Shown here in pieces: positions 5,555-31,361 of a DNA stretch of 31,361 bases. This stretch comes from an uncultured virus (IMG/VR IMGVR_UViG_3300030103_004079). Its lineage: Duplodnaviria > Heunggongvirae > Uroviricota > Caudoviricetes. A model generated the notes under the pieces. That model was not told where the DNA came from, made no database searches, and was given only the letters and a program-made list of their open reading frames with translations. A program made the translations under genes and the position numbers. The number at the start of each line of letters is the position of its first letter. The first letter of the stretch is position 1. The stretch is from IMG/VR virus record IMGVR_UViG_3300030103_004079; one strand, written 5' to 3'.

Positions 5555-5782
5555 TCAAAATGGAATATTTTCTTTCTTACCCCTACGCTTTTGTGGGGGT
5601 AAGATAACATCGGGAACATCATTAGATGCTCTTATTGCTTTATGAGTTGTGTCCGGTGGTAGTCCACCAACAGAAAAATCACGATTCTTTGTAACCTTTC
5701 TAGTTTCATTTGCATTCTGTGTCTTTACTTTCGCTAATTCTTTCTTTAGTCTAATCTCTTTCTGTCTATTATCTTCTGTCAT
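5555..5782 (-). CDS. Small basic hypothetical protein (75 aa)
   Basis: TAATG-coupled to the portal stop; GAGGAGG RBS. Confidence 0.75.
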   Translation of the reverse strand: MTEDNRQKEIRLKKELAKVKTQNANETRKVTKNRDFSVGGLPPDTTHKAIRASNDVPDVILPPQKRRGKKENIPF

Positions 5783-7428
5783 TAACCTGTCCTCCTCTCA
5801 CTTCTTCTATCTACATTTTGATTACCTGCGTCTTCCGGTAATCCGCTTAATCTTTTATCCGGCCCTGTACTCATAGAAGGTTTATTTCTAGTAGCGGGTG
5901 GGTTTTCTTGTGGCTTACTACCGCCACTTTCTGCAAACATTCTTGTTTGTTCATCTAAGTCTCTTTGGTCTAAATTAGAACCTGCTAGTGGGTCTTTTTC
6001 TATGGGTTTTCCATCTTCTCCCATCTTCTGCCCCTCTTCTTGTGGTTCGGGTTTTTTGTAAGTAAAGTTACCGTCTTCATCCATATCAACTTCAAATCCT
6101 AGATTCTTAATAGAACCTGCAATACCGACTTCTAATTCTTTCTTTCTTAGCCCTGCTATTTCATCTTCTTCTTCACTTGGAGGAAGTTTCAATACCCAAT
6201 CAGTGATTCCAAATTGCTTTACAAGATAAGGAAATACATAACTATTGTAAACATTCTGTGCCATTTGAACTGCTCTATTAGTTACAAGAATCTGCATACC
6301 TTCATTGTTAAGTCCACCGCTTGTAGTGTTATCAGCCATGAAGACCTTACTTACTCCATAAAATGCCGATATTCTATCTCTTAAATCATCCTTAACAGAA
6401 ATATAATCCATTTCTTTTAGGCTATCCATAAACTTAATCCACTCAACAGCACCCTTACCACCTTCTGCTTCTATACCCATGACAGGAATAAAGTGTGGGT
6501 CTGCCTCCATCTTTTCTTTTACTCCTCTCCAAAAGGCTCTCATTGAATCCATGTTTCTAGTTTGAACGGCCAGTAATCCTCTTGGCATTCTGCTCTTAGT
6601 ATAGGCTGAATTGACATAGTTTTCCATAGCAATTAAAGTCATAATGTGATTATACAATGTAATCACAGGAGAAAAACCATAGAGTCTTGAAGGACTATAT
6701 TTACTGAAATGTAATACTTCCCCTTTAATGAAATACTGTTCATCGCCCTTTGCTCTATTAACATAGTGTATAGGCTTCAAAGGAGAACCACAAGTTTCGC
6801 AAGTATCGTGCGGTTCTGTTGAAATAACATCTCTATGGTGAACACAAGTAAATCCTTTGTTACCTTTTACGCCATCTTCATCAGCATAGATAAACATAGT
6901 AACAGGGTCGCCACGATACACTTCCTTGACACGGTGCATTCTAATTTTACCATTACCGTCTAAGAAATATTCCTTAACCATAACTATGTATGCGTCATCC
7001 ATAATATTCAAATCATCCTCTAGTTCTTTTAAGACATCAATAAACAATTGCTCGGATGAATTTACATATCCCTCTAAAAACTTTTCAGCATATTCTAATT
7101 GTTTAACATCGGGTATTTTTAAATCAGTAGAGCCACATCTTGAACATTCTTGAACAGGTCTTGTGTGGGTTTTTCCGCAATTATTACACTTTGCTTCAAA
7201 TGCTTTTTCCCAAACATAGCCTCTCCTGTAGACTTCCTGTTTCAATTGAGTTATACAAGTTCTAACAATAACTGATTGTTGAACCATAGAATAGATGATG
7301 GGGGCAGTCATCATGTAGTTATTTTGCCTTTCTTGAATACCCATGTTGTAAATATTCCTATCGGCAGGTTTTGGTGTAGTACGCCTGAAAAGATTTGTGA
7401 AAGAGAACCGTCTTCGTTTTTCTGCCAT
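5782..7428 (-). CDS. Portal protein with Cys/His Zn-ribbon-like insertions (548 aa)
   Basis: Portal-like segments 'GEVLHFSKYSPSRLYGFSPVITL', 'MPRGLL', 'RDRISAFYGVSKVFM'; CNNC..CSRC and CVHH..CETC insertions; same strand and module as the terminase. Confidence 0.85.
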   Translation of the reverse strand: MAEKRRRFSFTNLFRRTTPKPADRNIYNMGIQERQNNYMMTAPIIYSMVQQSVIVRTCITQLKQEVYRRGYVWEKAFEAKCNNCGKTHTRPVQECSRCGSTDLKIPDVKQLEYAEKFLEGYVNSSEQLFIDVLKELEDDLNIMDDAYIVMVKEYFLDGNGKIRMHRVKEVYRGDPVTMFIYADEDGVKGNKGFTCVHHRDVISTEPHDTCETCGSPLKPIHYVNRAKGDEQYFIKGEVLHFSKYSPSRLYGFSPVITLYNHIMTLIAMENYVNSAYTKSRMPRGLLAVQTRNMDSMRAFWRGVKEKMEADPHFIPVMGIEAEGGKGAVEWIKFMDSLKEMDYISVKDDLRDRISAFYGVSKVFMADNTTSGGLNNEGMQILVTNRAVQMAQNVYNSYVFPYLVKQFGITDWVLKLPPSEEEDEIAGLRKKELEVGIAGSIKNLGFEVDMDEDGNFTYKKPEPQEEGQKMGEDGKPIEKDPLAGSNLDQRDLDEQTRMFAESGGSKPQENPPATRNKPSMSTGPDKRLSGLPEDAGNQNVDRRSERRTG

Positions 7429-10023: not shown

Positions 10024-11874
10024 TCACATCTTATCTATTAAGTAAGCAACATGGTGGCTTAATTTGTCATCGGGGTATTCTTTCAATTCATCAATAGTAA
10101 TCCACTTGTAATCGCTATGCTCAAACGATAAAGTAGGATTCCAGTCATCTTCTACTTCTATTCTAAAACAATGATATTTCTTTGGTGGTTTCATGTCCCT
10201 ATCAAAATGAACTCCTAATTTAGATGATGGTTTTTTCTTTAATCCTAACTCTTCACCTGCTTCAATCATACAGACTTTTTCTGCATCGGGAGTTCCATCG
10301 GCGTTAAACTCGTCAAGTTCTTCTACCTTACCTCCGGCAAATTCCCACATTCCTATCATAGTATCTTCTTCGGGAGAACGCTGAACAATCAAAACTTTAT
10401 CTCCTTTGAAAACTGCCGCACCTGCCGCATGTCTAACACCATCTTTATCCAATAAGAATTTCTTTTTGTTGTTTCCTTTAGCATACCAAGAAAGTCCTTT
10501 GTCTTCCATTTCATCTTCTTTGATAATAACTCCACCAATGTTTTCCATACTATCCATTATAGACATCTTACAGTTGTCTTTGTATTTCTGTATATTGTCA
10601 AGGTATATTCCCTCTTTCAACCAATCAAACCCTACATGGTCTTTATGGTTCTCCCACTTCATTAACTTGAATATCTCATCACATCTTTCCTTATACCAAT
10701 CTTGTTTTTTGTAGGATTTTTTCATTCGTATAAGTTCCATAAGTAATTTAGCATTACCTTTCTTTAATCTAAAGTGTGGTAAGCACTTTTCTAATAAGCC
10801 ATAAACATCATCTTGAGAATAAAAATTTAATCTTTGAACCGGCCTAGTTTGTTGCGGGGATTTTTGATTTAAATGTAACTTACCGAAACCTATGCTCTTG
10901 TGCATCTCTTCCATAAATGCCCTTCCTCTTTCTCCTGTAGCAATTAACCCTACTCTTGGATTGTGGTTTCTGTCCATTGTAATATAACCATCCGAATCAA
11001 TAAAAGCCGCAGTATAAGCCCAAATATTTTTCTTAAGCATTGTTGGTAATTTATAATATGCTCCATCAACATTAGCAACATCTAACTTCTTTACCATTTT
11101 AGAAATCATATTTGTTGTCGTGCTTTTATGCAAAGTGTTTGGCATTCTATCGTGAATTTGTTTAGCACCAATAGAAGGACTCTTAATAATTTCACTTTCA
11201 ATAAAAGAAAGTATTCTTTCTTTCTTGCTTTTAGTAATGGACTGGTCACTAATGTTTTTTATTTGTTTTTTGTAATCTCTTTTAGCAATACGGCATTCTT
11301 TTTCTAGTTGAGCATATTCTTTAGAATAAACCATGTCTGTCTTATTCAAATCACATTCCCAATACTTACAAATGGCATCAATAATATCTCTTCTAGCATT
11401 GACACTACTAATTTTATTTATTTTCATCAAATCTTTTTCACTAAAACCCATCTTAAGTATTGCAGGTTTGTATGGCTTAATCCAATAAATAGAATCTATG
11501 CATTTATTGATATGGTCGGAGTAGCCGTCAATAACAGTATCAATAGCCTTAGTCATTCTAGTTCTTTGCTCTCCCTTTAATTTCCTTCTAGCCTTTCTCA
11601 TTTTCTTCACAAGGTCGGGAATGTTTTCTCCATCAATAGAATATTCACTAGGGAAAGAACTCAATTGTTTTCTAGCATCACTAGCGTTAATGTTTAGATT
11701 CTTAGAAAGTAAGTTTACTGCTTCATAATCGGACATAATGTAGTCATTAACAGAAGCCAGTTTAGTTCCTAATGCTTCCTCCACTTCATCCTTAGTATTT
11801 TCCTGTTCTTCCTCAAGTTCAGCAAGCCTAGCCATGTTTTGCGAACCTTGTCTATACTCTTCTGCTGTTGGCAT
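10024..11874 (-). CDS. Fusion protein: helical N-terminus + LAGLIDADG endonuclease-like domain + C-terminal Nudix hydrolase (616 aa)
   Basis: 'WAYTAAFIDSDGYI' LAGLIDADG helix and 'LLEKCLPHFRLKK'; Nudix signature 'VLIVQRS..MWEFAGGKVE...EAGEELG..EHSDYKWI'; AGGTGA RBS. Confidence 0.8.
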   Translation of the reverse strand: MPTAEEYRQGSQNMARLAELEEEQENTKDEVEEALGTKLASVNDYIMSDYEAVNLLSKNLNINASDARKQLSSFPSEYSIDGENIPDLVKKMRKARRKLKGEQRTRMTKAIDTVIDGYSDHINKCIDSIYWIKPYKPAILKMGFSEKDLMKINKISSVNARRDIIDAICKYWECDLNKTDMVYSKEYAQLEKECRIAKRDYKKQIKNISDQSITKSKKERILSFIESEIIKSPSIGAKQIHDRMPNTLHKSTTTNMISKMVKKLDVANVDGAYYKLPTMLKKNIWAYTAAFIDSDGYITMDRNHNPRVGLIATGERGRAFMEEMHKSIGFGKLHLNQKSPQQTRPVQRLNFYSQDDVYGLLEKCLPHFRLKKGNAKLLMELIRMKKSYKKQDWYKERCDEIFKLMKWENHKDHVGFDWLKEGIYLDNIQKYKDNCKMSIMDSMENIGGVIIKEDEMEDKGLSWYAKGNNKKKFLLDKDGVRHAAGAAVFKGDKVLIVQRSPEEDTMIGMWEFAGGKVEELDEFNADGTPDAEKVCMIEAGEELGLKKKPSSKLGVHFDRDMKPPKKYHCFRIEVEDDWNPTLSFEHSDYKWITIDELKEYPDDKLSHHVAYLIDKM

Positions 11875-11884
11875 TTATATCACC

Positions 11885-13327
11885 TTAAAAATTAATTCCC
11901 ATAACTCCTTGAGAGCGTTTATACTTGTTAACCTTTGGCGGGTCAAATAATCCCATGTCATCTAAGAGTATGAATGTTTCACTCATTGTATGAGTAGCGG
12001 CATTAGCCAATGCTAAACTCATAACCATGTCATCATGCGCCCCTATTCCCTCAAACTTCCCTTTGTCTGTAATAGCAAACATAGATAGTTCTTCTATCAA
12101 AGTAGAGGTAACTCTACGACTTTCTTCATTAGCGTAAGGTAATATTATCTTACCGTTTTCAAAGTTCATTTGTAAACTTAGAATAATCTCTTCTTTCTTT
12201 TTTCTAGTAGTGTTAAAGTCGTGAACATTTAAGTCTGTAACATTTCTAATCTCTTGTGTAAATGATTTAGCAAATGTATTTGTTTCAAATAATATTGCTT
12301 CGGGTTGAAACACTTTACCAATCAACTTTACTTTCTGTATGTTTTCTCTAAACTCTACATTCTTAGAACGGTCAATAAACACAATAGTTTTATTATCATT
12401 CTCATCAACTTCTAATACAGTAATTACATTGTAATCTCCATCAGTAGAAATAGCAGGGTCAATACCAACATAATATTTGTAGCCCTCTCTACGCATTGGT
12501 TTCAAAACATGGTCTTTACTCTTAGCCGCTTCCAAATATTCGGGATTAAACAAAGAAGTTCCAGTTGATATAGGAACACACATATATTCTCTTGTAAACA
12601 TAAGAGAACCGACTTCAGCCTTTCTTGCCATAAGAGCATCATAATCCCACCTACTAGGCCATAGGGGTTCATTGAGAGCGTTAAGACAAGGGTAGGTTCT
12701 AAGAGTATATGCGGGGTTCTCGGAGAGTTGTTGGTAAATATCTGTATAACTAAATGGAGTTCCAATAACTCTTAGAGAAGCAGTATGGTGAAGTGTTGGT
12801 ATCATGTCACCATAAAACCAATCTGTAACCTTTTGAATTCCTGTCATACTAAACTCTTTCAAAGGGTCGTCAATGATAATCTCTTGAGGGTGAAGTCCAC
12901 GAATCTGTGAACCGACAGAACGCTCTAAGATTTGATTACCATTAGTAAGTGTAATATTTCCTATCGCCCATCCCTTAGCAGGTTTGAATTTTTTAAGCAT
13001 AGGGTGATTGAATAGTTTATCTATATCTCTCATGTGAACCAAAGTCTGCTTTTGGTTAGAAGAAATGTATAGCATTTGATATGGTGGCTCTCTAAAAATT
13101 AAATTCCACACAACCCAACTGTGCATAAAGACAGATTTACCGTGACCTCTTGAACAAATGATAACAGTTCTTTGAGTATCGTTCATTAACTCTAACCACT
13201 CTTGTTGATGAGTTGCGAACTCCCAACCCAAGACATTTTGAAAGAAATATGGAAATGAGTTTTTAGATAACTCCATATCCATTTGATGCTCAAAATTAAA
13301 ACTATCTAAATCCATATTATCACCCAA
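11885..13327 (-). CDS. terL: Terminase large subunit (480 aa; start may be MDLDS)
   Basis: Walker A 'CSRGHGKS', 'IRG..IIIDD' Walker B, 'IGTP' coupling motif, RNase H-like nuclease 'GIDPA..DY' and 'HDDMVMSLALA'. Confidence 0.93.
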   Translation of the reverse strand: MGDNMDLDSFNFEHQMDMELSKNSFPYFFQNVLGWEFATHQQEWLELMNDTQRTVIICSRGHGKSVFMHSWVVWNLIFREPPYQMLYISSNQKQTLVHMRDIDKLFNHPMLKKFKPAKGWAIGNITLTNGNQILERSVGSQIRGLHPQEIIIDDPLKEFSMTGIQKVTDWFYGDMIPTLHHTASLRVIGTPFSYTDIYQQLSENPAYTLRTYPCLNALNEPLWPSRWDYDALMARKAEVGSLMFTREYMCVPISTGTSLFNPEYLEAAKSKDHVLKPMRREGYKYYVGIDPAISTDGDYNVITVLEVDENDNKTIVFIDRSKNVEFRENIQKVKLIGKVFQPEAILFETNTFAKSFTQEIRNVTDLNVHDFNTTRKKKEEIILSLQMNFENGKIILPYANEESRRVTSTLIEELSMFAITDKGKFEGIGAHDDMVMSLALANAATHTMSETFILLDDMGLFDPPKVNKYKRSQGVMGINF

Positions 13328-24421: not shown

Positions 24422-24802
24422 TTACTTTTTTCGTGGTACTGAAATATTGCGCTGTTCTTCCGAACCCCTAGATATTACTTTGAAGTTTCGCCCCTCTTCC
24501 ATCATAAGTCTTCTTGGTAACATTATTCTTCCATTGTCACTTTCTGCAAGTAGTCCATAATCCTTGTAAGTTGGATGGTATCTTGCTCCATTAATTGTAT
24601 ATCGGTTTCCTTTTTCTAAGTATGCTTGCCTACTACGGGATTCCCAATCAGGAATAACAGGTAGATAATTATTTACCCTTGAGCCTGTATATTCAACAAC
24701 TGAACCAAATGGTAAAGCCTCGCCATCAAAGAAACTAAAATACATTTTGTAGTCTTTGTGTCCTTTAATCATTCCTTTTCTAATTATATCTTCCCATGTC
24801 AT
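24422..24802 (-). CDS. Hypothetical protein with MTWEDIIRK tag (126 aa)
   Basis: ORF track; AGGTGA RBS. Confidence 0.8.
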   Translation of the reverse strand: MTWEDIIRKGMIKGHKDYKMYFSFFDGEALPFGSVVEYTGSRVNNYLPVIPDWESRSRQAYLEKGNRYTINGARYHPTYKDYGLLAESDNGRIMLPRRLMMEEGRNFKVISRGSEEQRNISVPRKK

Positions 24803-24832: not shown

Positions 24833-25084
24833 CTAGGATTTGTCATAGCCTTGCCTCGCCTCTTTTATGTAGGCTAATCCATTTTCCATATTCCTAGAAA
24901 CAGACTTCTTTATGTAGCCTATTTCCTTAAGAAGAGTATCTTTATCTGCTTCTTGTTTAATCTCATATTCAAGCCTCATCACTTGTTCGGATAATCTACC
25001 CATATTAAATTTAAAGAGTTCTAATATTTTGAAATACCTTTGGTCGGATATTTTTTCTTTTTTAATCGTATTTTCCCAATTCAT
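24833..25084 (-). CDS. Hypothetical protein with MNWENTIKK tag (83 aa); first gene of the minus-strand operon
   Basis: ORF track. Confidence 0.75.
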   Translation of the reverse strand: MNWENTIKKEKISDQRYFKILELFKFNMGRLSEQVMRLEYEIKQEADKDTLLKEIGYIKKSVSRNMENGLAYIKEARQGYDKS

Positions 25085-25638
25085 TTAATTTCAACTCTTT
25101 TTTCAAAAAATGTGGCGGAATTTTTGTGGCACTAGCGTAAAAATTTTTTTTATAACTATTGTATTTCCAGAATAAAAGTTATACTATTCATTATTAACCA
25201 TGCTTAGTTATAATCAAATAAACTACTATCCTTAGTATCTTTAATCTTACCTTGCATAGTCATTTTATTCTTAGCCTTAATGTCTCTAATGTATCTTAGT
25301 AATGTATTTAACTTAGTTTTAATGTCTTTTAACTCATCATCTAACTCTTCAGTATAATTACCACTCTTAGTTTTAGTCTCATTAAGTATTTCCTTAAGTT
25401 TTTGTGATATTGTATTTAACCTAGAAACTAAGCCAAATCCAATATCTTGACTAATGCAACAACCTCCTTTAACAGGTCGTAGCAATATAAGGGTAATAAA
25501 GGTAGTAGTTTTATGGGTTAATATGTTATACACAGTAGTTAATAAGTCAAAATTAACGATGAATGCTTATATTATTCAAATTAATAAAGAATAAAAATTT
25601 TGGAACAAAGCCATATGGTTGTAGAGCAACCAAATTAA

Positions 25639-25695
25639 CAAGCATATGGTTCACTTTAAGAACCCGAATAATATACCTTGTAGGGAATAGTAACC
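25639..25695 (+). promoter_or_regulatory. Cassette 1 promoter (representative of nine copies): CATATGGTTCACTTT-NN-GAAC-..-TATA-like box
   Basis: Conserved in all nine cassettes; ATG lies 53-54 nt from CATATGG in five protein cassettes, consistent with leaderless archaeal transcripts. Confidence 0.8.
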
Positions 25696-26046
25696 ATGAC
25701 AGGAATGCATATAGAAGAAACAAGAACGATTGGTTATGGTAAATTTTGGAAAATAAGTTTTATCTTATATTCATCCAGCAATTATAGGCAAGAAAGAGAG
25801 GAATTATACATGAGGTTTTTTGATAAATGGACAAAATCGCCAATCGGTAATTTTCCCTACAAAATATCTTCAGGCAAAGTGTTGAGAATATCATTTTCCG
25901 ATAAATCAGTTCCATACAGACAACAATACAATTCAAACACCCAGAAATACGAATCACATAAAACATATATGACTCAACAAGATATAGACGAATACAAAAA
26001 GTGGTTCTACGACTTATTTACTGAAGATTTGGGTATGGAAATATAG
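25696..26046 (+). CDS. Cassette 1 hypothetical protein (116 aa)
   Basis: ORF track; ATG at +53 from the repeat; followed by a terminator. Confidence 0.8.
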   Translation: MTGMHIEETRTIGYGKFWKISFILYSSSNYRQEREELYMRFFDKWTKSPIGNFPYKISSGKVLRISFSDKSVPYRQQYNSNTQKYESHKTYMTQQDIDEYKKWFYDLFTEDLGMEI

Positions 26047-26061
26047 AGTTATTTCGCCCTG

Positions 26062-26115
26062 ACGGTCAAAAAAACCCCCATTTTCTTAGGAATCTGGGGG
26101 TTTTACCTTTTTTTT
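26062..26115 (+). terminator. Hairpin + T-tract terminator, conserved-flank type
   Basis: ACGGTCAAAAAAACCCCCA...TGGGGGTTTTACC-T8. Confidence 0.8.
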
Positions 26116-26214
26116 CGAGGTTTGATGATGTTATATTTATTGAGGAGAGTATCATCAAACCATATGGTTCACTTTGCGGAACCCGCCATATATACTTTAC
26201 AGGAAGGAGTAGGC

Positions 26215-26607
26215 ATGTCACTGAACATAACATATCATAGGAGCATAATGAAAGAAAGTAAAGAAGATACCATCGAGGTTACTTGCTGTAGCAAAGGCAG
26301 TAAGCACTGGGAATATGCCTTAAAGGTCGTTTCCTCTATTGCCAAAAAGTCGTATTACAGCCCTCATGTTTATTTTGATTGGGGAGGCTCAAGCAAGTGT
26401 GTCATAAGAGTTAAAGGTTCATGGAATGCTGAATCAATGAGTAATTTCTTAAGAAAAGCATCAAGTGAAAGAGCAATCGAAAGCGGTCTTTTTAATGGTC
26501 GAAGAACTTGGGTCTTCAATCATAAAACAGAAGATTGGGAGCGATTCAATGAGGAAGAAGTAGATAGTCTTCCAAGTAATATCTACAGTTTAGATTTGTC
26601 GGAGTAG
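26215..26607 (+). CDS. Cassette 2 hypothetical protein (130 aa; MSLNITYHRS...)
   Basis: ATG at +54 from the repeat; the ORF-track 5' extension runs through the repeat and is rejected. Confidence 0.8.
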   Translation: MSLNITYHRSIMKESKEDTIEVTCCSKGSKHWEYALKVVSSIAKKSYYSPHVYFDWGGSSKCVIRVKGSWNAESMSNFLRKASSERAIESGLFNGRRTWVFNHKTEDWERFNEEEVDSLPSNIYSLDLSE

Positions 26608-26613
26608 ATAAAT

Positions 26614-26666
26614 ACGGTTAAAAAAACCCTGCAAGGTTTCGGCCTTGTGGGGTTTTACCTTTTTTT
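26614..26666 (+). terminator. Hairpin + T-tract terminator, conserved-flank type
   Basis: ACGGTTAAAAAAACCCTGCAAGG-TTTCGG-CCTTGTGGGGTTTTACC-T7. Confidence 0.8.
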
Positions 26667-26794
26667 GGTCAAGGTTTGGTGTTTACGCTACGCTCTAAAT
26701 TCATTATATAAATTACATTTATTATATGAATTTACACCAAACCATATGGTTCACTTTAGGAACACAGAATATATATCTTCCATCAAGGAGTAAG

Positions 26795-27001
26795 TGTCTA
26801 ACCGGTATAATAGACAAAGACTGACCGGAGTTAAGCGGCCTATCGGCTTAACACTATGGCCTAATGACGAGAGGAAACTTGGAATAGAGGTAAAAGTGGC
26901 TAGAAAAACATGGCGATGGATATGAACGCCCATATCCAACAAATCAAGTGTTTTTTGCAGGACTAGGGGATATAGGCTCTCCCCTAGTCCAAGTTTTTTT
27001 T
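26795..27001 (+). ncRNA. Cassette 3 candidate structured small RNA (~200 nt); alternatively a 43-aa GTG-start ORF at 26794-26925
   Basis: Full promoter and terminator but no ORF of 60 aa or more on this strand; hairpins TGTCTA/TAGACA, GTTAAGC/GCTTAAC, TGGATATG/CATATCCA, GGACTAGGGGA/TCCCCTAGTCC + T-tract. Confidence 0.55.
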
Positions 27002-27104
27002 ATTGAGGTTTGAGGTCGTTTTATACTTATTACTGTTAGTAACCTCAAACCATATGGTTTACTTTGGAATACCCGTTTCATATAGTTATGTAGAAGGAGT
27101 ATGC

Positions 27105-27422
27105 ATGTCGAGCGTATTAGACAAATTTGAGCAAGAACTAGCGAACACCAATGTAGTTGAATATGTGCAATCAGCAAACGGAGACATCAGTGCTGAAAAA
27201 ATCACTGAAATGTCAAATCGTAGAAATACACTACATAAAATAATTGATGCCATGAGCAAAATGAAGTTGAGTGAATCACTTTGGAATAAATTTAATCATG
27301 AAGAAATCGAAGAAATAGCAACTGCATTCAACAATGTTTTAGACAGTTTCCGAAGAGAAAATGATGGACTATACCAAACTATCCAAGATTGGGAAGAATG
27401 GGCAGACAGCCGACCTTACTAA
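27105..27422 (+). CDS. Cassette 4 acidic helical hypothetical protein (105 aa; MSSVLDKFEQ...)
   Basis: ATG at +54 from the repeat; followed by a terminator. Confidence 0.8.
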   Translation: MSSVLDKFEQELANTNVVEYVQSANGDISAEKITEMSNRRNTLHKIIDAMSKMKLSESLWNKFNHEEIEEIATAFNNVLDSFRRENDGLYQTIQDWEEWADSRPY

Positions 27423-27429
27423 GGTCAAA

Positions 27430-27482
27430 ACGGTCAAAAAAACGACCCTGTATTTAGGTGCAGGGTCGTTTTACCTTTTTTT
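27430..27482 (+). terminator. Hairpin + T-tract terminator, conserved-flank type
   Basis: ACGGTCAAAAAAACGACCCTGTA-TTTAGG-TGCAGGGTCGTTTTACC-T7. Confidence 0.8.
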
Positions 27483-27627
27483 ATCGAGGTTTGAGGTCGT
27501 TTTAATTAACTTACTAGATAGTAACCTCAAACCATATGGTTCACTTTGAGAACTCGGATTATATACTAAACAATAGGTAGGTGGTGCTTCAAGGGGTTGA
27601 AGTGTAATTATCATTGAGGTGAAAATT

Positions 27628-28104
27628 ATGAATATGGAAAAACTAGAAACTAATAGAAATAACATACGAACATGGATGAAGGAAAACGAAAGCCCACTTA
27701 ATGATGCTTTAGAGGGTCTACTCGTAGCATCTGAGTTGGCTAAAACTGATGATGAAGCGGTCAAGTATTGGTCGTCAATTCGTTCACTTTGTGGCAACAT
27801 GAGTCCTTCTCCTGTTAAGAAAGGTGTGCAATCAAAATACTCTACTGATGTTTTGGCTGTATTAGACGCTATTGGAACTGAAGTTAATGATGCTTCTATC
27901 CGCTACCATAACGACGGTATTATGTCTAAGGTATTGTTTTCTCACGGTAAATCCGGTGGAAAACAAATGCTAGCAGAAGTATTTGGTAAGACTATGAGAA
28001 ACATGACCATTGGAAAACTTAAGAAAAAGTTGGATGATGGTATATGGGACGGAACTCTAGCCGGTTTAGACTCCTTGACCGAAAAAACGGAGGATAATGA
28101 GTGA
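27628..28104 (+). CDS. Cassette 5 hypothetical protein, paralog of 29474..29983
   Basis: GAGGTGA RBS before ATG 27628; shares YWxSIRxxCGNxxxSPxxKG and DGxWDGTL with the cassette 8 protein. Confidence 0.85.
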   Translation: MNMEKLETNRNNIRTWMKENESPLNDALEGLLVASELAKTDDEAVKYWSSIRSLCGNMSPSPVKKGVQSKYSTDVLAVLDAIGTEVNDASIRYHNDGIMSKVLFSHGKSGGKQMLAEVFGKTMRNMTIGKLKKKLDDGIWDGTLAGLDSLTEKTEDNE

Positions 28105-28111
28105 TTAACAT

Positions 28112-28235
28112 TTCAACCCCTTGTTGCCCCTACTCCCGATTAGGCCGAATAGTGAAACTACTCTTACAGTGCAGTAAATAAGCACTTCTTAAGAGATTTT
28201 AAAAAATAGTTTCACTATTCGGTCTAAGTTTTTTT
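28112..28235 (+). other. Structured 3' UTR RNA element / terminator of cassette 5
   Basis: 20-bp stem 28141-28160/28207-28226 enclosing CTCTTA-CAGTGC..GCACTTCT-TAAGAG; T-tract follows; 28112-28123 complementary to the 5' leader. Confidence 0.75.
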
Positions 28236-28343
28236 ATTTAGGGTTTGATGCGGCCTTCGGCCTAAATGTTTAAAGAACATTTCATCAAACCATATGGTTC
28301 ACTTTAAGAACCCAATTCATATATCTATTGGTATAGAGATAAC

Positions 28344-28685
28344 ATGCGAAAGATAACTAGAGACGCAATAAACGCACTATATGATAAAAGAGACTTCAAG
28401 CGAGGTAATACAGAAATTAAAGAAGTAATCAACTATTCTTCTGCGACTAGTTGCATGGTTATGTATTTACACGGTAATGGTATTGCCAAACTTGAGGATA
28501 ACAACTTATACATTCGTCACGCAGGATGGCAAACTAACACCACTAAAGAACGCTTGAACGGCTTGCCAAATGTCAACATTCATCAAAAGGATTTCACATG
28601 GTATCTAAATGATAGAATGTGGGAGAACGGCAACGAATGGACATGGGTTGACTGCTTATCATTGGAAGACTTTTCTTTCAATTAA
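28344..28685 (+). CDS. Cassette 6 hypothetical protein ('YLHGNGIA..GWQTNTTKERLN..QKDFTWY', 113 aa)
   Basis: ATG at +53 from the repeat; motif pattern recalled from uncharacterised aquatic phage proteins (unverified). Confidence 0.85.
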   Translation: MRKITRDAINALYDKRDFKRGNTEIKEVINYSSATSCMVMYLHGNGIAKLEDNNLYIRHAGWQTNTTKERLNGLPNVNIHQKDFTWYLNDRMWENGNEWTWVDCLSLEDFSFN

Positions 28686-28717
28686 TATGAACTAATATAG
28701 TCCGAGTGACTATAACT

Positions 28718-28756
28718 GCCTTTCTCGACCCTTCGGGGTCGGGATTGGCTTTTTTT
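28718..28756 (+). terminator. cUUCGg-capped hairpin + T-tract terminator
   Basis: CTCGACCC-TTCG-GGGTCGGG followed by GGC-T7. Confidence 0.8.
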
Positions 28757-28859
28757 GGGGTTGTGAGTAATGTATTTTATAATACTAGGAGAGTATTACT
28801 CACAACCATATGGTTCACTTTCGGAACTCGAATTATATATCGAACAAGGTATAGTAGGC

Positions 28860-29325
28860 ATGTCGGGAGTCATGAACCGGCAGGGATTGACCGAACACCC
28901 TATGAACGGGGGTAAGGTGCAATGTTCCGAGTAGTTTCGGCTTATGTGACTATGATGCTCTAATGAGTAAGTTTTCACCTCTAAGGAAAAGTCCTTGAAC
29001 CTCAAAAGGGGAGTTATTACTAGTAACTTGGATAACATTGGCAGTATGGCTCTTGAGAAAAAGAGAGCGTTCAAAGTGAGTGCGACCCAATCGTATCATA
29101 CTTGAAGATACCCAACTCTTCATCCCATCCCATTCCAATGGCTATTAGTGGCCATAACACCATTGAGAAACAAAGGTGAAAGTCAAATCGTAAATGTAAG
29201 GCGGTCGAATATGCATGACAGGGTGCAAAATGAAGAATACTAGTTGTCCTTCAATCACTCCCCTCGATTCAAGCATCACGCATTCACTGGATTTGAACGA
29301 GTAGCCGGAGTTTCTCAATTTTTTT
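28860..29325 (+). ncRNA. Cassette 7 candidate large structured ncRNA (~400-460 nt)
   Basis: Promoter-driven, no plus-strand ORF of 60 aa or more starting downstream of the promoter; nested long-range helices and many local hairpins; ends with a hairpin and T-tract. Confidence 0.7.
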
Positions 29326-29473
29326 ATTGAGGTTTGGCATCGTTATTATTACTTTACTGGTAGTAATGCCAAACCATATGGTTCACTTTGAGAACTTGAT
29401 TCTTATACTATTAGACTAGTAGTAGTCGCTTCGCAGGGTATGAAGTAAACTTACAAACATCGGAGAGATAAAT

Positions 29474-29983
29474 ATGATGGAATATAGTAAATTAATTAGC
29501 AAAACAAACGATATATTGGCTTGGCTTGAAGTAAATGATGCCGGCGCACTTGAAGGCGCAATTAGAGGTATCATTACTGTTGCTCAAGTTGAAGGACAGA
29601 CAGAAAAACAATACGGTAACTATTGGGGTAGTATTCGCCAAATGTGCGGCAACCTCCCAAACTCACCAATCCGCAAAGGAACACAACCGTCTATACCTGC
29701 CGAAGCGTTAGCGTGTGTGGATTCTGTAGTGACTCAAGTGCAAACTGCTTTTGCGGGTATTACTGAAAGCAACGAACTAATTCTTGAAGTAGTTTTACCT
29801 TTTAGAAATACAACCGGAAAAGGTTTTGAGTCTATGGATGAACTTGCTGCATATATGGCAGGTCGAGCAAGAGACGCATTAGTCAAGGCTCACAAAGATG
29901 GCCGTTGGGATGGTACTCTCAACGATGGACTAACAGGTATGACTCCCCCTCAACCTGCATCAAAGAAGGAGGATAGCGAGTAA
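29474..29983 (+). CDS. Cassette 8 hypothetical protein, paralog of 27628..28104 (169 aa)
   Basis: GGAG RBS; shared motifs YWGSIRQMCGNLPNSPIRKG and DGRWDGTL. Confidence 0.85.
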   Translation: MMEYSKLISKTNDILAWLEVNDAGALEGAIRGIITVAQVEGQTEKQYGNYWGSIRQMCGNLPNSPIRKGTQPSIPAEALACVDSVVTQVQTAFAGITESNELILEVVLPFRNTTGKGFESMDELAAYMAGRARDALVKAHKDGRWDGTLNDGLTGMTPPQPASKKEDSE

Positions 29984-29994
29984 GGCTAACTGAT

Positions 29995-30133
29995 TACCCT
30001 GTGTTGCCCCTCTACTAAATACATTCGACAAATTAGCACCCAAAGGACATTACAACTCATACAGTCAAGAGAATTCACGACTTCTTATGAGATAGTAAAA
30101 AATAAAGTGTCCTTTGGGTGTCTATGCTTTTTT
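29995..30133 (+). other. Structured 3' UTR RNA element / terminator of cassette 8
   Basis: Stem 30037-30051/30106-30120 enclosing CTCATA-CAGTC..GACTTCT-TATGAG; T-tract follows; 29995-30003 complementary to the 5' leader. Confidence 0.75.
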
Positions 30134-30238
30134 ATGCAGGGTTTGAGGCGTAGAATAAGATTCAACAAAAGAATGTGCCTCAAACCATATGGTTCACTTT
30201 AGGAACACAATTGATATACGCTGTGGTATAGAGATACC

Positions 30239-30511
30239 ATGACAGTAATAGATTGGCATGCAGAAGTAAAAGAATATAAACAAAACTATGATGATGATGA
30301 TGGAATTCATGAATATATTGAGAGTTTAGTCCCTCAATATTTCGGTGACATCTATCAAACATATCATGATGAGATAGGAACACCCCTCAATATTGAAATT
30401 GAAGCACACCATGTTGGCCTTAGATTTTGGCGTATAATAGTAGGTCATATATTCGAGGCATACCTTGAACAATTCTTGACCGCTTGGCATGAAGTAGAGG
30501 AGGAAGAATAA
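30239..30511 (+). CDS. Cassette 9 gene A: Ocr (T7 gp0.3)-like acidic DNA-mimic / anti-restriction protein (90 aa)
   Basis: 'DDGIHEYIESLVPQYFGDIY...RIIVGHIFE...EVEEEE' parallels the T7 Ocr pattern 'DAIHMAADNAVPHYYADIF...RILQARIYE...EEVEE' as recalled; very acidic; ATG at +53. Confidence 0.65.
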   Translation: MTVIDWHAEVKEYKQNYDDDDGIHEYIESLVPQYFGDIYQTYHDEIGTPLNIEIEAHHVGLRFWRIIVGHIFEAYLEQFLTAWHEVEEEE

Positions 30512-30721
30512 ATGATACCAAGATGGAACGACGAAGTTTATCCGGTGATGTTCTCAAGTGACTTTGGGAGGAATAGTTCAATAGTAGCAATATGTAGTAG
30601 TCACAATGATGCAAAAAGATTTGTTGCTAAATTAGAGAGTGAATTAACCGACGATGAAATCGCAGAAGGTTATCTATATGGTATCTTAATGTTTAACATA
30701 ATAGAATGCGGAGAGGAATAA
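30512..30721 (+). CDS. Cassette 9 gene B: small acidic hypothetical protein (69 aa)
   Basis: Starts right after the gene A stop; GAGGAGG RBS; followed by a terminator. Confidence 0.75.
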   Translation: MIPRWNDEVYPVMFSSDFGRNSSIVAICSSHNDAKRFVAKLESELTDDEIAEGYLYGILMFNIIECGEE

Positions 30722-30727
30722 TCAAAC

Positions 30728-30778
30728 ACGGTCAAAAAAACCGGCTATCTTTAGGGGTAGCCGGTTTTACCTTTTTTT
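30728..30778 (+). terminator. Hairpin + T-tract terminator, conserved-flank type
   Basis: ACGGTCAAAAAAACCGGCTATC-TTTAG-GGGTAGCCGGTTTTACC-T7. Confidence 0.8.
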
Positions 30779-30831
30779 CGAGGTTTTGTGCAGTTATTAT
30801 TTATTTAACTCCTTTGCAGTTGCACAAAACC

Positions 30832-31361
30832 ATACCATATTATAACCATAAGCCTTCAATTGGTAGCAATATTTACTACCCAAGATTCCAATACCCTCGA
30901 TAATATTATTTTCAATTGAATGTATAAATAATGAAAATAATAATAAAAATATCAATATAATATACTATATAATATTAAGAAAAACATTATTTTGGGTCAG
31001 CAGGGGGGGTGAAAATAAAAGTGAAAATAAAATTCTTGAGAGTAATGGGGAATAACTGTGAAGTTATTATATAATAAATATATTATTTTATTATTTTATT
31101 ATTTTCAATACTACTCTCTTTCTTCCCTCCCCTCCTCGATTTTTACTGTTAAGATTCTTGAGGGTTATTTTCAAGGTGGATTTCAAATGGTAATTTTCCC
31201 CTCTCGGAAGCAGGGCAAAATAATGAAAATAACAAAATATTAGAGCAGTTGCCCGTTTAGTGTTCAAAATAATCTAAAAATAATCCAAAATAATAACTTG
31301 AGTTGGCAAAGTTCATCTAAATCAAAATAGAAATAAAGCCTTCTTTAAATGTAATTTAAGC
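30832..31361. other. AT-rich non-coding region with short AAAATAA-type repeats; possible replication origin or terminus-proximal region
   Basis: No credible ORF; tandem GTGAAAATAAAA x2 at 31009-31032; many AAAATAA/TTATTTT units on both strands. Confidence 0.4.

Follow-up and report, generated by a model that had tools for sequence, protein, structure and literature searches.

Twin-hairpin joints with covarying stems separate the cassettes of a gene array in a magrovirus-like ocean virus

The DNA of the uncultured virus IMGVR_UViG_3300030103_004079 (31,361 nucleotides (nt), hereafter the window) carries nine short plus-strand units in a row that end at 30831, and the boundaries between these cassettes follow one plan, in which a T-tract, a large hairpin, a palindrome, a small hairpin and a TATA-like box succeed one another. 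The palindrome ACCATATGGT consists of the end of the 3' arm of the large hairpin, ATAT and the next GGT. Because it is flanked by a second, small hairpin, the element as a whole, here called the joint, is two-fold symmetric: hairpin, AT|AT, hairpin. Its stems covary, it occurs in one array per genome, and the cassettes that it separates differ between relatives. We interpret each boundary as a terminator-joint-promoter module whose units are shuffled by recombination between the repeated copies, with the hairpins selected on DNA, and we give this interpretation a probability of about 0.5.

In mechanistic terms, each boundary would comprise three parts, namely an oligo-T terminator with its hairpin, the twin-hairpin joint centred on ACCATATGGT, and a promoter of the archaeal TATA type. 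The large arm would adjoin the terminator of the previous unit and the small arm (GGTTC-ACTTTnn-GAACC) the TATA box of the next, and a two-fold symmetric factor would presumably read the joint. Given that a block of ~20 nt is repeated at every boundary, recombination by homology between joints would be expected to move whole units, so that promoter-gene-terminator units could be deleted, inserted or relocated. Such shuffling would need no dedicated recombinase, like that of the promoter-early stem-loops (PeSLs) of T4-type phages, which were reportedly described by Arbiol et al. in 2010.

Anatomy, distribution and covariation of the joint

Nine stem-loops had been reported in the initial annotation, and a scan for perfect GGTT...AACC stems found exactly these nine, with stems of 9-13 bp, and no others on the plus strand of the window. 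Folded as single-stranded DNA, the nine large hairpins reach z scores of -3.8 to -7.0 against dinucleotide shuffles. They are located, as had been described, between a T-tract terminator and the next promoter. The further claim that every boundary has such a stem-loop holds for these nine, but the first boundary (25606-25677) has only two small hairpins and the last (30782-30838) has half a palindrome and no promoter. What had been taken for a plain promoter box, ATATGGTTCACTTT, turned out to be one half of the palindrome together with the small second hairpin, just upstream of an archaeal-like TATA box. This small hairpin has the form GGTTC-ACTTTnn-GAACC, and its 3' arm ends 5-7 nt upstream of a box of the ATATAC type. 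The 16-mer CCATATGGTTCACTTT matches nine times with at most one mismatch, always on the plus strand, between 25642 and 30185; a tenth match, with three mismatches, lies at 24697 on the minus strand, chance expectation being 0.56 with three mismatches allowed.

The comparison took in the nearest relative, G001, which has 24% of sampled words in common with the window and is ~90% identical across the structural genes, and, by way of pattern scans, another close relative (G002), a complete genome (G003) from what is here called the second clade, and eight metagenome contigs with at least two copies of the motif. Four further complete viral genomes display the symmetry of the joint: each ACCATATGGT is flanked on both sides, outward, by GGT-stem, loop and stem-ACC, with CTTTG or CTTTTG in or near the loop of 45 of the 48 half-elements. 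In the window CTTT(T)G is kept in only 5 of 16 half-elements, and most large arms lack the motif, yet their stems are the longest. The stems of the small arms covary as well (GGTTC/GAACC, GGTAT/ATACC, GGTAGC/GCTACC, GGTATGT/ACATACC and GGTTGTGA/TCACAACC). After each half-element there is either an outward TATA-like box or the terminator of an inward-running gene.

The palindrome is confined to the array, with all copies falling there in the window (8/8), G002 (8/8), G001 (6/6) and G003 (5/5). In five of five complete genomes it occurs 4-8 times, always within one stretch of 2.3-3.5 kb, and a reversed control pattern occurs not at all. A covariance model built from our junction alignment, A1, gave 28 matches in the 284,633 bases of the window and G001-G003, all of them in arrays and mostly its own training sequences. 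The gapped pattern GGTTG-N22-52-CAACCATATGGT marks at least 123 loci in viral contigs, and among those listed 32 have a true stem of at least 8 bp, the remaining 91 being chance matches; the joint design recurs in other viral contigs, ~87-97 kb in size. Two further roles for the joint sequence were tried and set aside. A coding extension from the ATG inside the palindrome is in frame in two of the five cassettes with a close ATG (2 and 4), as chance gives, and for a C/D-box small RNA, inspection by eye found TGATG in only two arms and no D box. The main texts of three magrovirus papers (PMC5434244, PMC11706807 and PMC10160649) do not describe the joint and have no mention of promoters, hairpins or intergenic regions; nor does PMC5434244 mention repeats or stem-loops, PMC11706807 stem-loops or inverted repeats, or PMC10160649 palindromes or transcription factors. 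Among the full-text matches listed for ACCATATGGT, none is a virus or archaeal paper by its title.

The arms had been said to differ between copies yet stay complementary, and the larger sample bears this out. In A1, which holds 51 distinct junctions, the 9-pair helix is 98.3% paired versus 71.7% in shuffles, none of 500 reaching the observed value; with the partner slid by 1-3 columns, 33-44% is paired. The four outer pairs are invariant (GGTT/AACC), and all five variable pairs change on both sides (124 cells), with no one-sided change. Because the finder that supplied the rows of A1 requires at least 7 perfect pairs, only pairs 8-9 are unbiased there; the junctions chosen by the downstream motif alone are therefore the fair sample for wobble pairs. 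This motif occurs 45 times in 12 sources, three of the occurrences being the first promoter of an array, without a long stem. All 42 remaining junctions have a run of 8-13 consecutive Watson-Crick pairs, and none of the 42 stems has a wobble pair among its first 8 pairs. There are at least 19 different stem sequences.

Cassette exchange and its break points

Relatives had been predicted to gain, lose and relocate cassettes with breaks inside the joints, and this is what the window shows when set against G001 and G002. The order is c1 to c9 in the window and c2, c3, c4', X, c7, c5, c6', c8, c9 in G002; G001, which is 94% identical to the window as far as 25675 at the array head, has X1, c4, c5, c6', c7', c8, c9. 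Cassettes 1 and 7 differ from palindrome to palindrome, the promoter spacer being included on the left and the terminator and large hairpin on the right. Units are likewise replaced between palindromes in another pair of genomes, G004 and G005. No cassette is flipped at the palindrome among the window and G001-G003, or between G004 and G005.

Break points only at CAAACC|ATA, as first proposed, are not what we found, as crossovers lie on both sides of the hairpin and one hairpin has been swapped between unchanged neighbours. In this case, between the end of c3 and the start of c4, the window and contig L098 share one hairpin and G002 and contig L141 another (GGTTTGGTGTC). A tally of 61 junctions in 14 sources gave five hairpin types with at least two downstream partners and four with two upstream partners. 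Type H4 keeps its upstream unit and precedes four different downstream units, and the second-clade types H9 and H11 keep their downstream unit behind varying upstream ones. As hairpins change partners on both sides, crossovers fall in both conserved blocks, and they are somewhat commoner in the longer one, CAAACCATATGGTTCACTTT.

A dedicated tyrosine or HUH recombinase, which an integron-like system would call for, did not turn up: Phage_integrase (PF00589), Resolvase and Y1_Tnp had no match in six-frame searches of G001-G003, one of which is rated 100% complete. The PF00589 search matched all 14 control genomes, and the others also matched controls. No recombinase family was found among the scanned open reading frames (ORFs) of the window or, by Pfam, among 107 ORFs of G003 and 84 of G002. 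In the accessible text of PMC11706807, such genomes are stated to lack integrases.

The exchange could nevertheless be site-specific. The joint would then be a structure-guided recombination site with inverted half-sites (ATGGT plus a CTTTG-loop hairpin), at which an enzyme reads the folded arms and cuts and rejoins at AT|AT; this enzyme could be coded by the host, be an unrecognised viral protein, or consist of the viral ERCC4/XPF or PD-(D/E)XK nuclease acting with ATP-dependent ligases. Alternatively, nucleases may cut extruded hairpins, with repair from another joint, and the hairpins would then be hot spots of recombination. We regard such a site as a serious possibility, though an unlikely one. 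Covarying stems in a stretch predicted to be untranscribed, the invariant palindrome with its loop motif, and the palindrome-to-palindrome differences of cassettes 1 and 7 all agree with it, as do a joint without a promoter in one genome, G006, and the lone hairpin replacement between unchanged neighbours, which resembles a conversion tract centred on a break. The relatives also encode an ERCC4-HhH nuclease, a PD-(D/E)XK nuclease and two ligase-domain proteins, and the T that bulges out after the 9-bp stem of second-clade joints resembles the extrahelical bases of integron attC sites. Set against this are the lack of any tyrosine, serine or Y1/HUH recombinase in the three related genomes and in the Pfam scans, and the crossovers on the T-tract side of the hairpin. 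Moreover, no junction that skips a cassette is listed across the 5.9-kb stretch in the assembled contigs of four runs, and the nucleases and ligases in question are ordinary magrovirus replication and repair genes. A whole exchange system of archaeal viruses guided by DNA structure, with bricks that carry inverted half-sites, a cut at AT|AT, and either an enzyme outside the known recombinase families or viral nucleases plus ligases, is in our estimate unlikely.

Promoter type and the level at which the pairing acts

The promoter on the small-arm side of the joint fits the archaeal TATA type. The ATATAC-type box starts 25-27 nt upstream of the ATG in five of the nine cassettes (1, 2, 4, 6 and 9); in the second clade the TATA box is 24-30 nt upstream of the ATG, without a Shine-Dalgarno-like box. 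In the halovirus HF2, the TATA boxes start at -26 relative to mapped start sites, according to the accessible part of PMC8707807. A bacterial, sigma-70-type promoter (TTCACT-N16/17-TATACT) with a Shine-Dalgarno box was considered and set aside. Four junctions fit it at 9 of 12 positions, yet matches are not enriched (27 versus 19.0 +/- 4.6 in shuffles), and the second clade has neither box. Our sole grounds for discounting the bacterial alternative are the archaeal gene set and the second clade.

The relatives encode a viral TFB homologue of 278-283 amino acids (aa), outside the window (L189:11848-12684 in G002 and L183:7174-8025 in G003), with a TFIIB zinc ribbon and a TFIIB core/cyclin fold (NCBIfam E values of 2e-6 and 2e-7). 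All top 40 Foldseek matches of its model (pLDDT 75.6) at E <= 0.001 are TFIIB, TFB or Brf, and they include the Pyrococcus TFB core on BRE/TATA DNA. The homologues form 39 clusters, and one was found in each of the four further joint-bearing genomes searched. This co-occurrence, seen in joint-bearing genomes, makes the TFB homologue a candidate reader of the joint and no more than a lead. TFB and TFIIB are not mentioned in PMC5434244 or PMC8651126, nor is TFIIB in PMC10160649.

The joint might also be only a shared operator, or an upstream element, of a divergent promoter; the large arm found in the window would then be the idle mirror half of an ancestral two-way promoter. The large arm is followed by an A-rich TATA-like tract on the minus strand; on this account it would be kept by gene conversion and possibly give short antisense RNAs, and shuffling would be an unselected by-product. 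The corresponding arm of other groups leads into YTATAC and then a leftward gene that has a start of its own, and the sparse retention of CTTT(T)G in the window would fit relaxed use. The class I intergenic repeats of HF2 offer a precedent, as they are described in the accessible part of PMC8707807 as conserved promoter repeats with extra upstream motifs. However, the large arms of the window are perfect over 9-13 bp, compared with 3-10 bp for functional promoter arms elsewhere, which is not decay, and the G006 joint lies between convergent terminators. We find this origin rather improbable.

The joints are predicted to lie outside the transcripts, after T6-T8 tracts and before TATA boxes, and the selection for pairing therefore acts most likely on DNA, either single-stranded or under torsional stress. 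The sequence-level dyad symmetry of the joint is typical of DNA sites. G-T pairs make up 21/298 in terminator helices versus 12/521 in the large hairpin, by an automated and noisy extraction, and in the RNA of cassette 7 one-sided changes occur in 4 of 26 predicted pairs. Contigs from RNA libraries cover parts of cassette 4 (27153-27397), cassette 5 (27586-27760 and 27907-28087), cassette 7 (28871-29127) and cassette 8 (29452-30048). RNA-library pieces fall in 12, 8 and 6 of 30 bins, and those of a DNA run in 30 of 30. The 13 RNA pieces listed all lie clear of the hairpins, although these are contigs, which cannot show starts, ends or absence; the piece that starts at 27586, ~26 nt past a TATA-like box, is likewise a contig and shows no transcript start.

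If the hairpins acted as RNA, through read-through or an unnoticed promoter, they could be processing, stabilising or back-up termination signals, and their CAAAG and CUUUG loops could kiss. They would then resemble the RNase III sites between the early genes of T7. The inner loops of joint 5 and its orthologue are of the UUCG or UACG type, an inner hairpin in contig L063 has one T-G pair, TTACC/GGTAA is covariant in G002, and the loop motifs CAAAG and CTTTG are complementary. Such a role is nonetheless quite improbable, considering that the joints are placed after T-tract terminators and upstream of TATA boxes, that the dyad symmetry of the sequence (palindrome and CAAAG/CTTTG) fits a DNA site and not an RNA, and that the main stems lack wobble pairs whereas neighbouring RNA helices have them. 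Least credible of all, and very improbable in our view, is that complementarity is kept by mutation without any function, through self-correction of quasi-palindromes by intrastrand template switching during replication, a mechanism known from bacterial genetics: the perfect stems without wobble, the double changes among hairpins with similar loops and the three stem positions at which joint 7 differs from joints 3 and 4 would agree with it, but two clades whose cassettes are only ~70% identical have retained 19 or more stem types, the stems always lie between T-tract and palindrome with GGTT/AACC as outer pairs, the second clade has a conserved loop motif and bulge, and unselected palindromes tend to be deleted.

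Several observations weigh against the terminator-joint-promoter module with hairpins selected on DNA. The small arms are only 4-6 bp long and hard to extrude from a duplex, which also argues against a simple cruciform; a DNA hairpin would therefore need a single-stranded phase or a protein. Some large hairpins hold inner hairpins with UUCG-type loops. In G006 one joint sits between two convergent terminators without any promoter, and thus the joint is not simply a promoter element. Cassettes 2 and 4 have GGAG-like boxes 8-10 nt upstream of the ATG, which together with TTCACT-N16/17-TATACT fit a bacterial promoter. Partner changes are mostly on the palindrome side of the large hairpin, as a site-specific cut would also predict, and the near-invariant CTTTG loop motif and the palindrome point to a specific reader, which could equally be a nuclease or a recombinase.

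The array, its virus and comparable systems

All features of the array are on the plus strand, and each cassette comes with a TATA-like box and a T-tract terminator of its own. At the strand-switch point, the array head (25606-25677) lacks a long stem-loop. It holds a half-palindrome GCCATATGGT (25610-25619) with the small hairpin GGTTG-TAGAG-CAACC (25617-25631), a second half-palindrome GCATATGGT (25642-25650) with the small hairpin GGTTC-ACTTTAA-GAACC (25648-25664), and the TATA-like ATATACC (25671-25677), 25 nt upstream of the ATG of cassette 1. Cassette 1 (25696-26107), which is missing from G001 and G002, has an ORF at 25696-26046 (116 aa, no family) and a terminator hairpin. Joint 1 (26108-26194) then shows the full order, with a T-tract at 26108-26115, a large hairpin at 26119-26161 (11 bp), the palindrome ACCATATGGT at 26159-26168, the small hairpin GGTTC-ACTTTGCG-GAACC at 26166-26183 and a TATA-like box at 26188-26194. 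Cassette 2 (26215-26659), the first cassette of G002, encodes 130 aa of no family (26215-26607) and has its terminator at 26623-26656. In joint 2 (26660-26775) the T-tract (26660-26666) precedes a large hairpin (26673-26743; 10 bp) whose 51-nt loop holds an inner hairpin, followed by the palindrome (26741-26750), a small hairpin GTTC..GAAC (26749-26762) and a TATA-like box (26769-26775). Cassette 3 (26796-26993) has no ORF longer than 43 aa, has its own promoter-like box and terminator, and is 95% identical in G002; its product would be either a small RNA or a small basic protein.

Joint 3 (26994-27086) consists of a T-tract (26994-27001), a large hairpin (27007-27051; 10 bp), the palindrome (27049-27058), an imperfect small hairpin (27056-27073) and a TATA-like box (27080-27086). 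It leads to cassette 4 (27105-27475), with an ORF at 27105-27422 (105 aa, no family above threshold) and a terminator at 27439-27472. Joint 4 (27476-27565) has its T-tract at 27476-27482, large hairpin at 27488-27533 (10 bp), palindrome at 27531-27540, small hairpin GTTC..GAAC at 27539-27552 and TATA-like box at 27559-27565. Next comes cassette 5 (27640-28228), with an ORF at 27640-28104 that is a paralogue of that of cassette 8 and, beyond it, a long 3' stretch closed by a long-stem terminator. The large hairpin of joint 5 (28229-28325) spans 28242-28291 (9 bp), after a T-tract at 28229-28235, and its loop contains two inner hairpins, GGCC-TTCG-GGCC and AAATGTT..AACATTT; the palindrome (28289-28298), the small hairpin GGTTC-ACTTTAA-GAACC (28296-28312) and a TATA-like box (28319-28325) complete it. 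Cassette 6 (28344-28749) carries an ORF of 113 aa (28344-28685; Pfam Kyano_Gp96, E 1e-20; phrog_554) and a terminator at 28723-28744, and is bounded by joint 6 (28750-28839), with a T-tract at 28750-28756, a large hairpin (28759-28807; 13 bp), the palindrome at 28805-28814, a small hairpin GTTC..GAAC at 28813-28827 and a TATA-like box at 28833-28839.

Cassette 7 (28861-29318) has no ORF and in G002 stands between cassettes X and 5. Joint 7 (29319-29409) is made up of a T-tract (29319-29325), a large hairpin (29331-29375; 10 bp), the palindrome (29373-29382), a small hairpin GTTC..GAAC (29381-29394) and a TATA-like box (29403-29409). Cassette 8 (29474-30127) repeats the layout of cassette 5, its paralogous ORF (29474-29983, 169 aa) being followed by a long 3' region with a long-stem terminator. 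Joint 8 (30128-30220) comprises a T-tract (30128-30133), a large hairpin with CAAAAG in its loop (30140-30186; 10 bp), the palindrome (30184-30193), a small hairpin GTTC..GAAC (30192-30205) and a TATA-like box (30214-30220). Two ORFs, 30239-30511 (90 aa) and 30512-30721 (69 aa), and a terminator at 30737-30768 fill cassette 9 (30239-30771). The array tail (30772-30838) has a T-tract at 30772-30778 and a large hairpin at 30782-30831 (11 bp), followed by a half-palindrome only (ACCAT, 30829-30833), without small hairpin or promoter.

The cassette genes had been described as early, host-interaction genes, a label for which we find no support, as seven of the eight cassette proteins have no family and the eighth belongs to Kyano_Gp96, a family of no assigned function. 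Kyano_Gp96 (phrog_554) is named after cyanobacterial myoviruses, and with cassette 6 as a member it therefore appears to be common to bacterial and archaeal marine viruses. The paralogues of cassettes 5 and 8 (27640-28104 and 29474-29983) have a third copy at L189:4362-4832, just after the G002 array. These helical proteins of ~155-170 aa, with 24 homologue clusters, are each followed by a long 3' region with a 16-bp-stem terminator, and the leftward gene beside the arrays of other groups has an N-terminus that looks similar by eye. The AlphaFold model of the family (pLDDT 79.6) had no Foldseek match at E <= 0.001 (best 0.69), only three-helix-bundle look-alikes in VIA-align (Z <= 8.2), and scores of at most 0.76 in the Atlas search.

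Cassette 7 (28861-29325) is probably a viral non-coding RNA of no known family, given that it has no ORF. The deepest RNA-library contigs of the stretch fall on it. Its 3' module (29128-29325), with the closing helix TGAGAAAC/GTTTCTCA, is kept in nine sources; it is 98% identical in one contig of the second clade, against ~70% for the other cassettes there. The 5' part scored against the manA RNA motif (Rfam RF01745), with 23.1 bits in the whole-window search and 47.5 bits over the full model length in a 496-nt search; we rejected this assignment, the score being below the gathering threshold of 55.2 bits and the 87%-identical G002 orthologue having no match at E <= 0.01.

Before the array, the window carries a tailed-virus structural block on the minus strand (1-25533), with a portal protein at 5782-7428 and a large terminase (TerL) at 11885-13327. 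The coding strand switches at about 25550, where the sign of the GC skew flips. Within the structural block, 10024-11874 (minus strand) encodes a 616-aa protein with an HNH-endonuclease-like stretch (residues 286-404) and a C-terminal NUDIX hydrolase domain. No tRNA gene is found in the window, blastn of 25000-31361 gave no match to cultured-phage DNA, and TerL is at most 26-28% identical to that of any cultured or GenBank phage. Downstream of the array lies a 530-nt AT-rich non-coding stretch (30832-31361), possibly an origin or control region. Its GC falls to 0.24, it has many direct and inverted copies of TGAAAATAA/TTATTTTCA, and it is kept in G002, where a cassette-5-like paralogue, a UvrD-type helicase and replication genes come next. 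After the G002 array, between this paralogue and the helicase, a 260-nt non-coding gap (L189:4833-5094) has an inverted repeat with a 13-bp stem (GGTTGAATTAGTT...) and a 69-nt loop, and several GC-rich hairpins, none of them of the joint type.

Pfam scans (107 ORFs of G003 and 84 of G002) found in G003 a split family-B DNA polymerase (PolB), not among the matches listed for G002, and an RFC-like clamp loader, and in both genomes an ERCC4-HhH nuclease, two proteins with ATP-dependent ligase domains, a UvrD-type helicase, a thermosome-type chaperonin (Cpn60_TCP1) and a caudovirus capsid module that includes an SU10-type capsid protein; a PD-(D/E)XK nuclease is also encoded. A primase is not among the matches listed for the two genomes, and no viral RNA polymerase was seen in their ORFs. 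By this gene content the virus is magrovirus-like. Magroviruses are tailed viruses assigned to Marine Group II archaea (Poseidoniales), and this uncultured ocean virus most likely infects archaea. The accessible part of PMC5434244 describes magroviruses as combining a caudovirus structural module with an archaeal-type replication set (PolB, clamp loader and ATP-dependent ligase) and a chaperonin. The portal and TerL of the window and the replication set, chaperonin and capsid genes of G002 and G003 agree with that published description, to which they were matched.

Among known systems the PeSLs of T4-type phages come closest, as do, for promoter repeats of archaeal viruses, those of HF2, and neither has a palindrome with twin covarying hairpins in the accessible texts (PMC4122927 and PMC8707807). 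PeSLs are composites of a stem-loop/terminator and a promoter motif repeated between small genes in a plastic region; relatives differ by insertion, deletion or replacement of units at these motifs, and recombination between repeats is favoured over a dedicated enzyme (Comeau et al. 2014, PMC4122927, accessible part). The parallel, which the initial annotation had drawn, is upheld by the nine repeated terminator/hairpin/promoter boundaries between small genes, mostly without family, and by the insertions, deletions and replacements of units at the motifs (window versus G001 and G002; G004 versus G005). Recombination between neighbouring PeSL motifs would also form mini-circles, and no junctions of that kind are listed among the assembled contigs. 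The PeSLs of that account, however, have sigma-70-type promoters, belong to bacterial myoviruses and use the terminator itself as the stem-loop. Here the gene set is of the archaeal type with a viral TFB, in place of the sigma-70 early promoter of a T4-type bacterial myovirus; the promoter is of the archaeal TATA type, the terminator is separate, a palindrome with two covarying hairpins and a loop motif lies in between, and a joint can occur without a promoter. The class I intergenic repeats of HF2, an archaeal tailed virus, are 56-58 bp long, stand before early/middle genes, and contain a TATA box ~26 nt before the start site and further conserved motifs that are proposed binding sites of viral regulators (Russ et al. 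2021, PMC8707807, accessible part). Compared by description, they differ from the joint in having no hairpins or palindrome described there, and in positions that are fixed among relatives.

The likeness to integrons lies in the array of small units and the imperfectly conserved, covarying sites, whose outer bases are kept and whose inner arms and loop are variable, with one bulged base in the second clade. An integron-like array in the strict sense, as first suggested, is not what we see, as the three related genomes and the scanned ORFs of the window have no IntI-type tyrosine recombinase, there is no attC architecture, and the cassettes have their own promoters and terminators. Integron cassettes, by contrast, generally lack a promoter and terminator of their own, being mostly promoterless and expressed from a common promoter. 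The attC sites have the order R''/L''...L'/R', with AAC...GTT outer boxes and extrahelical bases. In our junctions the outer boxes are GGTT(T)G...C(A)AACC in 51 of 51, and a single bulged T occurs in the second clade only; there is no attI, the arms are GGTT...AACC and not RYYYAAC...GTTRRRY, crossovers fall on both sides of the stem, and a second hairpin makes the element two-fold symmetric. In IS200/IS605 and REP/RAYT elements, short hairpins close to the ends of the unit are recognised as folded single strands of DNA, and a short motif next to the hairpin is cleaved. Unlike these, the three related genomes have no Y1/HUH transposase, and the promoter-gene-terminator cassettes stand in one array and are not dispersed. 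The promoters of the phage N4 virion RNA polymerase have a DNA hairpin just upstream of the start site, whereas the stems and loops of the joint are far larger and no viral RNA polymerase appears in the Pfam scans of the relatives. KorB, a global regulator of IncP plasmids, uses one palindrome as operator at many promoters, with some sites far from promoters, but no covarying hairpins flank its sites.

Magroviruses count among the most abundant viruses in the surface waters of the ocean. Both they and their hosts are still uncultured, and the main texts of the literature searched contain nothing on where magrovirus transcription starts or stops, or on how it is organised. The joint provides three handles here. 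It is a sequence tag, ACCATATGGT with its flanking hairpins, that marks the accessory-gene array of each genome; it is a promoter and boundary design that can be tested for an uncultured archaeal host; and it is a natural experiment in modular gene exchange. Should the hairpins indeed be read as folded DNA, archaeal transcription or recombination would offer a rare example of DNA recognised by its structure; should the joints be a recombination site, they would define a new kind of cassette system. An exchange system guided by DNA structure, if true, would be an independently arisen functional analogue of integrons, with promoters of its own.

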